The translations under genes and the position numbers were made by a program. Shown here one piece after another: positions 24,861-41,269 of a DNA stretch of 44,592 nt; the stretch's first letter is position 1; each line of letters begins with the position of its first letter. Source of the DNA: Escherichia phage BEK1-1; sequence record MN158212.1, one strand, 5' to 3'. The notes beneath the pieces are model-generated. The model searched no databases. It was given only the letters and a program-made list of their open reading frames with translations, and had not been told where the DNA came from.

Positions 24861-24938
24861 TGGCGCTCCGCACTGGATTCGAACCAGTAACCTACGACTT
24901 AGAAGGTCGTTGCTACTATCCTATTGAGCTAGCAGAGC
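24861..24938 (-). tRNA. tRNA-Arg (anticodon UCU)
   Basis: Minus strand reads GCTCTGC...TAGCTCAATAGGATAG...ACGACCTTCTAAGTCGT...CTGGTTCGAATCCAG...GCGGAGC-G-CCA; acceptor stem pairs 7/7 (one G-U); anticodon loop CT-TCT-AA; T-loop GGTTCGAATCC. Confidence 0.85.
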
Positions 24939-27380: not shown

Positions 27381-27427
27381 ACTATAACAAAACCCGCCGT
27401 AGCTGGTTATGCAAAAGGTGCTATTTA
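27381..27427 (-). promoter_or_regulatory. box promoter, half-box variant (AAATAGCACCTTTTGCATAA, about 20 nt, TATAGT)
   Basis: Direct reading of the reverse complement. Confidence 0.4.
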
Positions 27428-27681
27428 CCAACCTGAATTGATTTAGACGATTCATGAATCATCTTCTGCCCGTAAAGCTCTTTAGCCTTCTGTAGTGACT
27501 CAATAGAGTCATTAAGATCAGTTAAGTAATCCTTGTGGCCACGCAATCCAGTACAAAGCATCTTCTTTAATGCGTGCTGAGTGGCCGGGTCAGATACGCC
27601 AAACGCATCAAGAACGCGATAAACATCTACTGTTGTTACCGTGCCATCAATGCCAATAATTTCTCGCTCGTACTTGCTCAT
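27421..27681 (-). CDS. hypothetical protein (86 aa)
   Basis: ORF with GAGGA RBS. Confidence 0.4.
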   Translation of the reverse strand: MSKYEREIIGIDGTVTTVDVYRVLDAFGVSDPATQHALKKMLCTGLRGHKDYLTDLNDSIESLQKAKELYGQKMIHESSKSIQVGK

Positions 27682-28385: not shown

Positions 28386-28904
28386 GCCGATAATAAGCGA
28401 TTTAGCTTTCCGGTAGAAATCGACAGCCCTCTCCACCTCTTCCTCATTGTACCGCAAGTGGTATGGTAGTCTACTAGCGTGCTCACCTTCGTAAGTTTTG
28501 AAGTTAGGTTGCCAGTACTCATCAATGATAGCTGGGTGGACGTAAATCTTATCCCCAATGAGGAAAACTAGATTCATTTCCTCTAGATCAGGGATTAGTT
28601 CGTCCTTAATGCGAGCTATGATATCAAGGCATCCTACGAACGGCTTAATCTTTCGAGCCTCCTCGTGTACAGACTTGACACCCACCACTCCCCTTCCGTT
28701 TCTTGCCATCTTCCTGATCAGCTTAATCAGAACTCCCAGCGCTTCATCTCTGTAGACTTCCGATGCATCAGGCTGGCCCCATAGGTGCTGAACATGCCGA
28801 TAACCGTTAGCATTGATTGCAACCCGCAGTGGCGGTAGCCCATCCTGGATAGCAATATTCATAATCTGCTCGTCCGTCAGTTTCTCTTCATCGAAATTAA
28901 ACAT
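28380..28904 (-). CDS. hypothetical protein (174 aa), short paralogue of the 527-aa P-loop protein
   Basis: N-terminus MFNFDEEKLTDEQIMNIAIQDGLPPLRVAINANGYR and C-terminus ...NGRGVVGVKSVHEEARKIKPF...LIGDKIYVHP align with the ends of ORF 31388..32971. Confidence 0.5.
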   Translation of the reverse strand: MFNFDEEKLTDEQIMNIAIQDGLPPLRVAINANGYRHVQHLWGQPDASEVYRDEALGVLIKLIRKMARNGRGVVGVKSVHEEARKIKPFVGCLDIIARIKDELIPDLEEMNLVFLIGDKIYVHPAIIDEYWQPNFKTYEGEHASRLPYHLRYNEEEVERAVDFYRKAKSLIIGE

Positions 28905-29452
28905 CAGTTAGTCTCCTTAATCATTTCATAGTAACGGGCCAGGGCAATGAGAGCGCCTTCTTTCTGCTCGCCTTGCAGGTCGATAACGTTAGGTGTGATC
29001 TTGAGTAACCGAGCCTTGAACCTTTCAATGATGGCGGCCTCCTTCTCTGCTTCCTGCTTCTTCTTCTCACGATTTCCAGTCCAGTGAGCGCCGTTCTCAA
29101 TATAGATTACCAGGTATTTATCAGCACCATCGCCGTCGAAATTACCCGGCCTGGTTTGCTCGCCTTCATCGTCAATCCAGATGAACTTGTAGCGCGCTCG
29201 CTTGTTGGCGTCTCGTAGTTCAGTCATTCGCGATACGGTATTGTAGATGTACGAGTTCTTGAGTTCAGGCATCGACCTGTCTGCCAGGTTTAGGATCTCG
29301 TCAGTCTCTTCGTCATACTCCATTTCGGGATATGGCTTGCCGCGAACAAGTTTGAATATCTGGCTTACCGGAACTTTGAACTCGCCGTTCTCAGACGCCA
29401 TTGCGTTACGGACCATCTCACGGATAACTTCGCCAAGTGTTAATTTCTGCAT
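28904..29452 (-). CDS. hypothetical protein (182 aa)
   Basis: First gene leftward of divergent control region B. Confidence 0.4.
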   Translation of the reverse strand: MQKLTLGEVIREMVRNAMASENGEFKVPVSQIFKLVRGKPYPEMEYDEETDEILNLADRSMPELKNSYIYNTVSRMTELRDANKRARYKFIWIDDEGEQTRPGNFDGDGADKYLVIYIENGAHWTGNREKKKQEAEKEAAIIERFKARLLKITPNVIDLQGEQKEGALIALARYYEMIKETN

Positions 29453-29731
29453 GTTGATACCTCGTTTCGTTTACTTCGTTTCAGTGATTGCCATCTTGCC
29501 ACTTGTTTACGTGTCGGTCAACGTATTTTTATGTCTATTTCATCGCGGATACGTTTTTCGGCCTCCAAGTTAGCGTCAGCACTGGTTGTAAACGTGCCGT
29601 ATCCCCTGTGTACAGTTTTGTAGGGTACTTTCCTATATATGTGCCTTTTTATTCCTACAATGTCATCCCATTCTGACAAGTGTCAGAATATCTGCACGGA
29701 ACATATCAACTATTGCCTCCGTGAGCGGTAT

Positions 29732-29797
29732 ACACAGTATACATATATATAATAATAATAATAATAATAAAGTAAAAGGTTGATATATATAGATATT
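29732..29797. repeat. AT-rich element copy 2: ACACAGTA-(ATA)n-TAAAAGGTTGATATATATAGATATT
   Basis: Near-identical to 2928..2985, with a longer ATA run. Confidence 0.7.
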
Positions 29798-29983
29798 ATA
29801 TTGTATATCGTGTGTATATCTCGCGTAAAAACGTAGGTTAGTGGTCACTAACTTTTGTGACGACACTGAGTATACGGAGGATACGCGTATATCGATGAGA
29901 ACCTTACCGATTGGTAAAAAATCAACTTGTATGGTAGTCCATCCATCTTTCATTCACTCACTCACCACTTTATTTTACTTTTC

Positions 29984-30069
29984 GCAACAATCAAAGACAT
30001 CATTGCATCTGAAGCAATATTGCTGTATATGCAATAATCATGTGAATCATTGCAATATCTGCAACAATC
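29984..30069. repeat. iteron-like cluster (GCAACAATC x2, ATCATTGCA x2, palindrome GCAATATTGC)
   Basis: Direct reading of gcaacaatcaaagacatcattgcatctgaagcaatattgctgtatatgcaataatcatgtgaatcattgcaatatctgcaacaatcc. Confidence 0.5.
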
Positions 30070-30085
30070 CATAAATCTGACGAAT

Positions 30086-30129
30086 GGCACTTTTTGCTAA
30101 AGACACTGGAGGTCATGGAGGATATAGTT
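30086..30129 (+). promoter_or_regulatory. box promoter, half-box variant (CACTTTTTGCTAAA, about 20 nt, TATAGT, leader AACTCATCAAAACGAGG)
   Basis: Direct reading. Confidence 0.45.
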
Positions 30130-31387: not shown

Positions 31388-32971
31388 ATGTTCGATTTCA
31401 ACGAAGATAAACTATCTGTTGAACAGGTTATGGCAATTGCTGCCGCAGAAAACCTCCCGCCCCTGCGCGTCGCCATTAATGCTAATGGCTATCGCCAGTC
31501 CCAGTCATTCTGGAAAGCACCAGTCGAGATTGATGCAGCTAATGACAAGTATCCAGTAATCTCACTAGGTAATGACATTGATGTTGTTGGTAAGCTGTCA
31601 GCTAATATTGCCCGATCTGTTCAGTTCCCTGAGTCGTCAGCTTACATGCACTTCCTGGGGTGTATTTCCGCTGCAATGCTGGGTCGATTTACTGTTGAGT
31701 ATCACGGAACGCAGCAACCGACTTCGCTTTACGTCGTAACAAGCCAGCCACCATCCACTGGTAAATCAGCCATTAACTCGCTATCGATTGCTCCAATGAT
31801 TGCTGAGACTCAGCGACTAAATGAAGTTAGAAAGCGTGAGCGCAAGAAAATTATGGCAAAACTATCTGCATTATCGAAAGAGATGAAACAGGAAAAATCT
31901 CCGTCAGAGATGGCCTCTCTTTTTGAGGAGAAGGAGGAGTTGGAGGAAAAACTCGAGAAACTATGCGATATCGTTTTCCCAGTATCAGATACCACACCAG
32001 AAGGTCTGGCCCGAATCAACAACCGCCAGGGCAACTTTGCTGTAATCTCTGATGAGGCAACGAGTGTAAACTCACTACTTGGCATGACCTATGGTGACGG
32101 CTCAAAGAAAACGAACAGCGAACTGGTACTGAAGGCATGGGATGCTGGTAACGTATCTATCGCTCGCGCTAACGCTGAAAACAACATGAGTTTTGTTGCT
32201 ATGGGTTGCATCTCTGTAATTGCGCAGGATGAGACAATCAACGCTATCATGAACGCTGGCGCGCGTGGTATCGGTGTATCTGAGCGTTTCCTGCTTGTAC
32301 GTGAAAAGTCATTCCTTGGCGAGCGTGTATTCGTTGATGAAAATGGCGAATCGACTTATGAACCAATTGATGCCGGGTTGAAGGCTGATTACTTCCGTTT
32401 AGTTCACGAAATCATGAATGAGCAAGATGTAAAGTTGACGGTGAGCAACTCAGCGATGAAATATCTCAACCGTGCACGTCAGGAAATGGAGCCTCATCTT
32501 GCTGACGGCGGTAAGTATTCCCACACAATGTTGCGCGGCGCGCTGGGTAAGTTCGATAAACAGGCTATAAGGATTGCAGCCGTTCTTCACACAGTTCGCA
32601 ACTGGTTCAACCCTAACGGTGGGAGTCCACAGAAGTCCAGAGAAATCGAGCTCGACACCATGCAAGAGGCTGTGATTATGTTCCAGGAACTGAGTAAGAC
32701 TTATTTGTCATCTGCCAACGCTGCGGGTCACGCTGGCGACAATGCAGAGATGAATAAGCTGATTGATATCCTGATTAAGCAAGGCAAAAACGGGAAAGGA
32801 GTAGTAGGTATTCGTTCGCTATATGAAGCGGCTCGCAAGGTTAAGCCATTCGAGGCTCAGGCTGGAGTGATGACGAAGATTAAAGATCACCTGCTGCCAA
32901 TGCTTGATGAGAAAAACTATACGTGCCTGATTGGTGATAAGGTTTACATTAATCCGCGACTTCTGGGGTGA
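31388..32971 (+). CDS. P-loop NTPase-like protein (527 aa), long paralogue of ORF 28380..28904
   Basis: Walker-A-like ...TSQPPSTGKSAI..., Walker-B-like ...FAVISDEAT... about 100 aa later; N- and C-terminal about 45 and 65 aa match the 174-aa protein. Confidence 0.5.
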   Translation: MFDFNEDKLSVEQVMAIAAAENLPPLRVAINANGYRQSQSFWKAPVEIDAANDKYPVISLGNDIDVVGKLSANIARSVQFPESSAYMHFLGCISAAMLGRFTVEYHGTQQPTSLYVVTSQPPSTGKSAINSLSIAPMIAETQRLNEVRKRERKKIMAKLSALSKEMKQEKSPSEMASLFEEKEELEEKLEKLCDIVFPVSDTTPEGLARINNRQGNFAVISDEATSVNSLLGMTYGDGSKKTNSELVLKAWDAGNVSIARANAENNMSFVAMGCISVIAQDETINAIMNAGARGIGVSERFLLVREKSFLGERVFVDENGESTYEPIDAGLKADYFRLVHEIMNEQDVKLTVSNSAMKYLNRARQEMEPHLADGGKYSHTMLRGALGKFDKQAIRIAAVLHTVRNWFNPNGGSPQKSREIELDTMQEAVIMFQELSKTYLSSANAAGHAGDNAEMNKLIDILIKQGKNGKGVVGIRSLYEAARKVKPFEAQAGVMTKIKDHLLPMLDEKNYTCLIGDKVYINPRLLG

Positions 32972-32974
32972 TGA

Positions 32975-33310
32975 ATGTTCATTTTGGATTTATACCGCTT
33001 CTGTGAGTCGTATTCATACTTTACGCGTCAGCATTTGGCGCGATTCATCTACCAACATAAGGACTCCCAGAGATTCAGTAAAGCGGCGGGGTTATCTCAT
33101 AGAGAGTTTTGCAGCGCGGCTTCAAAGGAGTTTTGCGCAAAGATGTTAACTGCTGGATACATTGATGGTAAGTGTGGTGAGTTTGTTAGCAAGGGGAGTT
33201 TGAAAAGGCCATTTGATTTCAACTTCGAGGCGCTTGGCGGGTATCAGAGCAAGTACATAAAGGAGATGATGAATATAGGAACAATGACTGACGATGAGTT
33301 ATTTGGGTAA
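32975..33310 (+). CDS. hypothetical protein (111 aa)
   Basis: ORF directly after the P-loop gene; followed by a terminator. Confidence 0.4.
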   Translation: MFILDLYRFCESYSYFTRQHLARFIYQHKDSQRFSKAAGLSHREFCSAASKEFCAKMLTAGYIDGKCGEFVSKGSLKRPFDFNFEALGGYQSKYIKEMMNIGTMTDDELFG

Positions 33311-40738: not shown

Positions 40739-41269
40739 GTGTATATGAAAGTTAATGATTTTGTTTATGTTGATGATGAATTTAAATTAAGATGGAAGAG
40801 TAGAGGTGTTGAATTCTTCAAAACAGAGAGGTCATCAAAGATCTGGAATAGTAGGTTTGCAAACAAGGAATGTGGATACATTAGGGATGACGGCTATCTT
40901 TCTTTTGAGTTCAATGGTCGAGCATACAGAAATCACAGGGTGATATGGGAAATTGTAACTGGTAATGAAATAGATGATAACATGGAGATTGACCATATAG
41001 ATCATAATACAACAAACAACAATACTGAAAACCTTAGACTTGTTGACAGGAAAGAGAATTGCAAAAACCAATCCATGATGCCCCATAACTCGAGTGGCTT
41101 CACAGGTGTTCACTGGTGGTCAGCAAGAAACAAATGGAGAGCCCGCATCGAATGTGATGGCAGAGTGAAAACAAAAACATTTGAAGACTTTAATGACGCC
41201 GTCGAGTGGAGAAAAGAAATGAACATAAATCTTGGCTTTCACAAGAATCATGGAGATAAGAAAAAATGA
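40739..41269 (+). CDS. HNH homing endonuclease with AP2-like domain (paralogue of 34780..35265)
   Basis: ...YRNHRVIWEI...EIDHIDHNTTNNNTENLR... and ...SGFTGVHW...KWRARIECDGRVKTKTFEDFNDAVEW... Confidence 0.7.
   Translation: MYMKVNDFVYVDDEFKLRWKSRGVEFFKTERSSKIWNSRFANKECGYIRDDGYLSFEFNGRAYRNHRVIWEIVTGNEIDDNMEIDHIDHNTTNNNTENLRLVDRKENCKNQSMMPHNSSGFTGVHWWSARNKWRARIECDGRVKTKTFEDFNDAVEWRKEMNINLGFHKNHGDKKK

Follow-up and report, generated by a model that had tools for sequence, protein, structure and literature searches.

Proteins of the DUF3987 family are superfamily-6 (SF6), MCM-related replicative helicases from phages and mobile elements that have a winged helix-turn-helix at the C-terminus and are usually associated with a primase (Kazlauskas et al. 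2016, PMC4889955). One of them, the PriCT-DUF3987 protein AgaPH, forms oligomers, unwinds DNA in the 5'-3' direction and binds its primase-polymerase, and Walker mutations abolish its helicase activity (PMC11724360). The MCM-like Rep helicases of Staphylococcus aureus pathogenicity islands (SaPI) are also initiators, whose C-terminal winged-helix domain reads penta- or hexanucleotide iterons flanking an AT-rich region and allows self-loading (PMC9371898). Here, we analysed the 44,592-nucleotide (nt) DNA of Escherichia phage BEK1-1 (sequence record MN158212.1; this whole stretch is called the window below), in which a DUF3987 protein of 527 amino acids (aa) is accompanied by a 174-aa paralogue that keeps the N-terminal motif and the winged helix (WH) of the helicase and lacks the ATPase core between them. 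The 44.6-kb window is the complete genome of a T1-like siphovirus. The helicase itself is nothing new; the novelty lies in the short protein, which is best described as a helicase-derived domain-only paralogue.

The helicase and its short paralogue

An earlier note, made by a model from the letters of the window, had reported two open reading frames (ORFs) of 174 and 527 codons that share both termini, the longer one with a P-loop NTPase-like insertion. Both ORFs are present (Table 1). The family of the long protein, DUF3987/SF6, is known, and the protein is an ordinary representative of it. It matched Pfam PF13148 over residues 81-430 with 142.9 bits (cut-off, 27; E = 1.9e-41), the same domain was carried by 120 of 120 homologues among the matches listed, and the protein was assigned to PHROG 2373, 'DNA helicase'. 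The PPSTGKS (residues 121-127) and AVISDE (residues 218-223) motifs that had been picked out by eye were confirmed; across 43 homologues with identities as low as 35%, Q120, P121, P122, S123, G125 and K126 of Walker A and S221, D222 and E223 of Walker B did not vary or hardly did. Structure prediction bore out the P-loop NTPase nature of the additional region and identified it as an MCM-like AAA+ core with the MCM-type fold; this unshared core comprises ~406 residues (46-451) and not the ~350 first estimated. The note had not recognised the family and had considered a takeover system. The long protein is instead a DUF3987/SF6 replicative helicase that is core to the Drexlerviridae and is annotated 'DNA helicase' in relatives, so that a takeover system is not the starting point. 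By analogy with the distant member AgaPH, it may unwind DNA as a hexamer in an ATP-dependent manner (PMC11724360).

Pairwise alignment, which the earlier note had proposed as a check, showed that the terminal similarity is significant and lies in two independent BLASTP segments. Residues 1-45 (extending to 98) of the short protein aligned with residues 1-45 (extending to 94) of the long one (E = 7e-19), and residues 59-127 aligned with residues 458-526 (46% identity, E = 6e-21). The first 45 residues, here called the N motif, are common to both proteins with 62% identity. Profile-profile comparison with hhalign equated short residues 53-128 with long residues 452-527 (probability 99.6%, E = 1.3e-24), giving a second shared module of ~75 residues. 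When the isolated segments were searched by tblastn against the six-frame translation of the whole window, the N motif (62%, E = 5e-18) and the WH (46%, E = 2e-20) were recovered, and neither segment matched any place beyond the two paralogues. Moreover, each paralogue cross-matched the PHROG of the other. The two are true paralogues, as had been proposed. The claim of shared termini needs amending at one end: the N-terminus is truly common, but the C-terminus of the short protein runs 47 residues (128-174) past the shared module, a tail that the note had missed.

The short protein belongs to PHROG 7327, 'unknown function', and gave no sequence match in Pfam, NCBIfam, PADLOC or PDB. A Pfam search of the isolated shared segments (PriCT, HTH and others) returned nothing, even at E = 10, and sequence relatives of solved structure were found neither for the long protein nor for the short protein or its upstream neighbour, the DUF7174 protein. 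In the AlphaFold2 (AF2) model of the short protein (pLDDT 82, pTM 0.68), three short helices at residues 11-41 are followed by a canonical WH (helix 55-69, strand 73-75, helix 76-83, helix 95-109 and hairpin 113-122), a poorly ordered stretch and a terminal helix at 154-172. The arrangement of N motif and WH was recovered in an independent model (1.2 Å over 140 residues). A WH fold was found in both paralogues, and the two WH models superpose on helicase WH domains with 0.6-1.2 Å over 72-75 residues. Both proteins have a basic WH (pI 9.3 and 9.6); the N motif is acidic. These models depict the short protein as an acidic three-helix N motif packed on a basic WH, that is, as the two peripheral modules of the helicase. 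As the earlier note had said, the short copy keeps the terminal modules without the ATPase (it has no Pfam match and no Walker motifs), an architecture such as a competitor, regulator or decoy would have.

The 47-aa tail has no counterpart in the helicase or elsewhere in the window. Its origin by read-through into the gene that follows the helicase gene was considered and rejected: tblastn extended weakly across the helicase stop codon, but blastp returned nothing and the profile-profile probability was 0.2%. That neighbouring gene, at 32975-33310 (+), encodes a conserved 111-aa protein of PHROG 2794 (unknown function), and in all relatives it begins one codon past the helicase stop, in the reading frame of the helicase. 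The profile hidden Markov model (HMM) of the short family also matched five 'AEEALAAAEAEGLPLIRSAASSSGYKHV' repeats preceding AP2-like segments in a eukaryote-like metagenomic protein, P0271 (633 aa; E = 2.9e-9). This match to the N motif was judged to be probably a compositional or chance resemblance, with an E value inflated by the repeats.

Table 1. Coordinates of the features discussed, as positions in the 44,592-nt window
Feature	Position	Strand	Remarks
Long paralogue, 527-aa DUF3987/SF6 MCM-like replicative helicase	31388..32971	+	
Helicase N motif	residues 1-45, nt 31388-31522	+	
Helicase Pfam DUF3987 core	residues 81-430, nt 31628-32677	+	PF13148
Helicase Walker A, PPSTGKS	nt 31748-31768	+	
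Helicase Walker B, AVISDE	nt 32039-32056	+	
Helicase C-terminal winged helix	residues 452-527, nt 32741-32968	+	
Short paralogue, 174 aa	28380..28904	-	
Short N motif	residues 1-45, nt 28904-28770	-	
Short linker/deletion junction	residues 46-52	-	
Short winged helix	residues 53-128, nt 28748-28521	-	
Short private tail, amphipathic helix at 154-172	residues 128-174, nt 28523-28383	-	
Upstream partner gene, 182-aa DUF7174 protein, acidic	28904..29452	-	Pfam PF23796, E 1.6e-49
AT-rich core of divergent spacer, 87.5% A+T, (AAT)6 at 29751-29768	29729..29808	.	conserved in relatives
Conserved non-coding block, 125 nt, six ATTGC/GCAAT pentamers	29983..30107	.	just upstream of helicase-side gene block
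DnaG-type primase (Zn ribbon + TOPRIM), 307 aa	41266..42189	+	Pfam Zn_Ribbon_Prim E 8e-9; PHROG 510 'DNA primase' E 7.5e-96

Origin, selection and distribution of the short gene

The junction of the short protein (~46-52) aligns with helicase residues just past 45 and just before 452, and therefore fits one in-frame deletion of the AAA+ core. In a rough neighbour-joining tree (121 shared columns, low resolution), most short proteins stood next to the helicases of their own phage group, nested inside the wider Drexlerviridae helicase tree. The architecture of N motif, AAA+ core and WH is widespread, and the short form occurs only in one part of the Drexlerviridae. Because of this nesting and of the breadth of the full architecture, duplication followed by loss of the core is likely, rather than insertion of an NTPase into a small protein as the earlier note had worded it. 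The short gene has the look of a duplicated helicase gene that lost its middle part in frame long ago.

When short and long genes of the same genome were compared, synonymous sites were saturated (pS 0.7-1.0) while the N motifs retained 63-77% protein identity, which argues for an old duplication in which selection on the two genes has kept them similar. These pS values, obtained in every genome tested, ruled out that one copy was recently converted by the other. The short subtype of AKS96/Sf12 has a few lineage-specific residues in common with its own helicase, and its DNA identity to that gene is no higher (0.63-0.64). Against nine relatives, the overall omega of the short gene was 0.12-0.23 (Nei-Gojobori), indicating purifying selection that is 5-10 times laxer than that on the extremely constrained helicase gene (omega 0.013-0.03 against relatives). 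The N motif is the most constrained part of the short protein: in 40 aligned members, down to 37% identity, L9, A18, D21, R27, I30, N33-G34-Y35-R36 and W42 were invariant, and in the wing, I116-G117-D118 and Y121 were likewise invariant among the 40 short members. Between Braunvirinae and Rogunavirinae, the helicase termini hardly differ.

More than 300 database proteins match the short family, of which the best 120 listed cluster at 160-187 aa. An exhaustive HMM search of 1.84 billion representatives returned 53 matches, all of them short-family members, fragments or Drexlerviridae-type DUF3987 helicases; the family is narrow, since no match fell outside these groups. In the phage collection, the full-length short paralogue was found in 112 records (Braunvirinae, Rogunavirinae and Nouzillyvirus), and other Drexlerviridae matched via the helicase only. 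Several phages provide a natural deletion series. In phage Rtp, rtp2 is a 19-aa N-terminal stub (MFDFTEEKLTDEQVMRIVE*) that is followed by the lipoprotein gene rtp3 (1064-1383 of the Rtp locus stretch); this region encodes an Stp-like PrrC activator, a polynucleotide kinase and the lipoprotein that replaces the short gene. In Veterinaerplatzvirus T145P1 the short gene is absent and the helicase termini are identical, and in the 12210I group the short protein ends at 140 aa, truncated in the tail. The short gene is thus dispensable, accessory and patchy in its occurrence. The module is also present in the BASEL phage Bas01, where the short gene is bas01_0066, which makes it directly testable.

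Genetic surroundings and possible roles

The gene upstream of the short paralogue encodes the DUF7174 protein, for which no structural or functional annotation was found. In the window its stop codon overlaps the start codon of the short gene by 1 nt (TGATG), and DUF7174 preceded the short gene with such a start-stop overlap in every full-length locus examined, including the most divergent metagenomic variants; most loci had the 1-nt overlap, and TR1 and Sf12 one of 4 nt. DUF7174 was present in 133 phage records, compared with 112 that contain the full-length short paralogue, and it persists where the short gene was lost, namely in Rtp (as rtp1) and in T145P1.

The long and short genes sit in divergent gene blocks on either side of a 700-bp spacer. 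The earlier note had called both of them first-wave genes, but promoter-like sites in this spacer occurred at the chance rate (13 found, 10.6 expected). The conserved block within it has GATTGTTGC direct repeats at both ends, together with a GCAATATTGC palindrome, and was near-invariant in an alignment of eight phages in which the rest of the spacer had diverged. It was 78-97% identical in 128 phage records, none of which annotates a relevant feature in it. Six ATTGC/GCAAT pentamers within 55 nt represent the maximum density in the genome, against ~0.5 expected, and the array lies ~210 nt from the AT-rich core, on one side only. The block is a candidate iteron or operator array, origin or pac-associated element, and the AT-rich core is possibly a DNA-unwinding element; the TR1 record annotates a pac site in this spacer. 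Because the short gene, DUF7174 and the block were found in 112, 133 and 128 records, respectively, the three features share essentially one phyletic range. As judged from sequence, the block may be associated with the paralogue pair.

A 7-kb query around the paralogue pair matched 152 phage records, mostly of Escherichia phages. Escherichia phage vB_EcoS-12210I (Drexlerviridae, Braunvirinae, Veterinaerplatzvirus) is collinear with the window; in this phage, structural genes, terminase, lysis genes, exonuclease VIII, an SNF2-type helicase, a VRR-NUC nuclease, a primase and a 'DNA helicase' are annotated; the last is the counterpart of the long ORF, and that of the short ORF is a 'hypothetical protein'. 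The primase gene of the window lies ~8.3 kb from the helicase gene in a different gene block, so that the two are associated at the genome level only; no primase is fused to the helicase or encoded immediately upstream of it. No DNA polymerase gene was seen in the annotation of the collinear relative, which points to use of the host polymerase. Replication in T1-like phages relies on an MCM-like helicase and a DnaG-type primase and, apparently, on the host polymerase. A Cro-like regulator is encoded elsewhere in the window. Between it and the primase gene lies an ORF for a 174-aa HNH_3 endonuclease (40745-41269, +; Pfam E = 3.5e-15), and the collinear relative NC_049813 has no gene at this position, which suggests a homing-endonuclease insertion. 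In the leftward block that holds the short gene, an 86-aa ORF (27421-27681, -) matches just the C-terminal third of PHROGs of ~235-250 aa (phrog_2452, and phrog_17613 'ATPase') and may be another domain-only small gene; its derivation from the P-loop NTPase of Bas01 was ruled out, as no similarity was found. A single tRNA-Arg gene (anticodon TCT) is located at 24861-24938 (-), as in related Drexlerviridae.

We tentatively favour, with somewhat less than even confidence, a reading in which the short protein, devoid of the motor, has an accessory part in modulating replication initiation by sharing the ligands of the helicase. A duplicated helicase gene would have lost residues ~50-450 in frame and gained the 47-aa tail; the short protein would then be made in a fixed ratio with DUF7174 by way of the overlapping stop and start codons, and it probably forms a complex with DUF7174 through its private tail. 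Since one N-motif signature and one type of WH have been kept in both copies, these most likely have their ligand or ligands in common. Having kept the peripheral surfaces of the helicase, with neither ring formation nor ATP hydrolysis, the short protein would occupy the same ligands as the helicase termini. Its WH may bind short DNA repeats near an AT-rich region, for which the ATTGC array is the candidate by analogy with SaPI Rep. Its N motif may bind a protein partner, either the DnaG-type primase or a host replisome factor; the primase is a candidate because N-terminal primase-binding domains occur in DUF3987 proteins (PMC11724360), and a host factor because the phage seems to lack a polymerase. 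The outcome would be a non-essential, accessory modulation of replication initiation or of helicase recruitment, and the short protein could act either as a helper or as a brake.

Several observations weigh against this proposal. The recognition helix of the short WH in the window is more acidic than that of the helicase. In ACG-M12, gp77 (94 aa; 1025-1309 of the locus stretch) keeps the N motif and the tail helix and has lost the WH, so that the protein must do more than bind DNA through this domain. The ATTGC block is retained in T145P1, which is without the short gene, and an operator or a piece of the pac region would be an equally good reading of it. Finally, since only a remnant of the gene is left in Rtp, none in T145P1 and a truncated form in the 12210I group, the short protein is not needed as an initiator or loader.

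The patchy, accessory distribution of the gene, even inside one genus, would also suit an anti-defence decoy or sponge, in which an abundant motor-less copy, produced from the leftward gene block, titrates a host or prophage factor that recognises or inhibits the helicase via the N motif or WH, and so shields the true helicase. Such a decoy could account for evolution 5-10 times faster than that of the helicase, for several divergent subtypes and for a neighbourhood of small variable genes, as in Rtp, and the sameness of the helicase termini with or without the short gene fits imitation and not co-evolution. However, a literature search on the short paralogue, DUF7174 and defence escape via Drexlerviridae helicases yielded nothing relevant, and it found no defence system known to target the termini of DUF3987 helicases; the short protein has no PADLOC relationship, and an omega well below 1 gives no sign of an arms race on the shared surfaces. 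A mimic of an abortive-infection trigger would, moreover, activate the sensor and not block it, and a decoy would not explain why the gene is strictly coupled to DUF7174 and co-distributed with a DNA element. We regard a decoy as unlikely. That the gene is a functionless remnant of a partial helicase duplication, now being lost, is suggested by its loss or truncation in several lineages, but is hardly credible: more than 100 phage records and 120 metagenomic clusters, with identities as low as 37%, contain intact ORFs of ~174 codons, the selection analysis (omega 0.12-0.23 with saturated dS) contradicts it, translational coupling is conserved and the predicted fold is confident.

Two further explanations concern what the retained modules might do. 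The short protein could be a dominant-negative brake that binds its own helicase, or those of co-infecting relatives or satellites, through a putative N-motif/WH subunit interface and delays or blocks ring assembly or loading, thereby serving as a timing device or a weapon in inter-element competition. Its architecture is that of a microProtein or truncated-paralogue inhibitor, with interaction modules kept and the catalytic core lost; the C-terminal domain of SaPI Rep is swapped onto the neighbouring protomer (PMC9371898), so that a free WH could compete for the site; and the near-identical helicase termini in Braunvirinae and Rogunavirinae mean that one short protein could act on many relatives. 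The phage's own helicase would be inhibited too, with no evident discrimination, and purifying selection maintains the gene in many lytic phages whose cycles are very short, which makes a brake decidedly unlikely. Equally improbable in our judgement is an autonomous DNA-binding regulator, in which DUF7174 and the short protein control transcription or packaging by way of the WH on the divergent spacer and the likeness to the helicase reflects ancestry only. The WH is basic, the gene adjoins the spacer, the module is co-distributed with the conserved block and the TR1 record places its pac site there; yet it is the acidic N motif, and not the WH, that is most conserved, a variant without the WH persists, the block is retained in a phage that lacks the short gene, and a separate Cro-like regulator is encoded elsewhere.

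A wider proposal is doubtful: DUF7174, the mini-paralogue and the ATTGC block might form an unrecognised accessory module of T1-like phages, in which a motor-less copy of the helicase's docking surfaces licenses or brakes origin firing or absorbs a host factor aimed at the helicase, as a viral 'microProtein' directed at the phage's own helicase. The conserved separate copy of the N motif and WH points to both as functional docking surfaces, and the short protein offers a small soluble bait for finding the ligands of these two parts of the helicase.

Comparison with known systems

A literature search found no such domain-only paralogue described for MCM-like or DUF3987 helicases. The long protein resembles the DUF3987/SF6 family in its Pfam match, Walker A and B motifs, MCM-like AAA+ fold, small N-terminal domain, C-terminal WH and the presence of a primase in the genome. 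It differs in its N-terminal element, a three-helix motif of ~45 aa without a Pfam model that is not PriCT, and its primase is of the DnaG type and lies ~8 kb off, neither adjacent nor fused. The short protein is a derivative and not a member of this family, as the whole ATPase core is missing. In the self-loading initiator-helicases SaPI Rep and SCCmec Cch (PMC9371898; PDB 7ola, 5dgk), the SaPI origin is located immediately 3' of rep, whereas the candidate array in the window is upstream of the operon. Unlike this phage, SaPI and staphylococcal cassette chromosome (SCC) elements have no reported separate WH-only Rep paralogue. The WH partners of MCM loading, Cdt1 and ORC/Cdc6, show a generic fold similarity only (6-16% identity), and the short WH descends instead from the helicase's own WH and not from a loader.

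Shorter forms of replication proteins are familiar from other systems. T7 gp4A/gp4B, adeno-associated virus (AAV) Rep78/68 and Rep52/40, and the R6K pi isoforms each combine a full-length replication protein with a shorter form that is missing one module and modulates replication; these short forms arise from internal starts or splicing of one gene and keep the motor. The likeness to the pair in the window is that of a full-length replication protein beside a shorter relative that lacks a functional module. The difference is that the short form of the phage is a separate, anciently diverged gene on the opposite strand, which contains the peripheral modules only, together with a new tail. MicroProteins such as LITTLE ZIPPER and the Id proteins, a concept from eukaryotic transcription factors, compete for or sequester partners. 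The short protein is like them a small homologue of the peripheral or interaction domains of a larger protein, without its catalytic part; it differs in being coupled to a second protein, DUF7174, and we infer its action from its architecture. If it indeed acts as a regulator or decoy, two widespread 'hypothetical' families, PHROG 7327 and DUF7174, would gain a function, and the truncated-paralogue (microProtein) principle would extend to phage replicative helicases.

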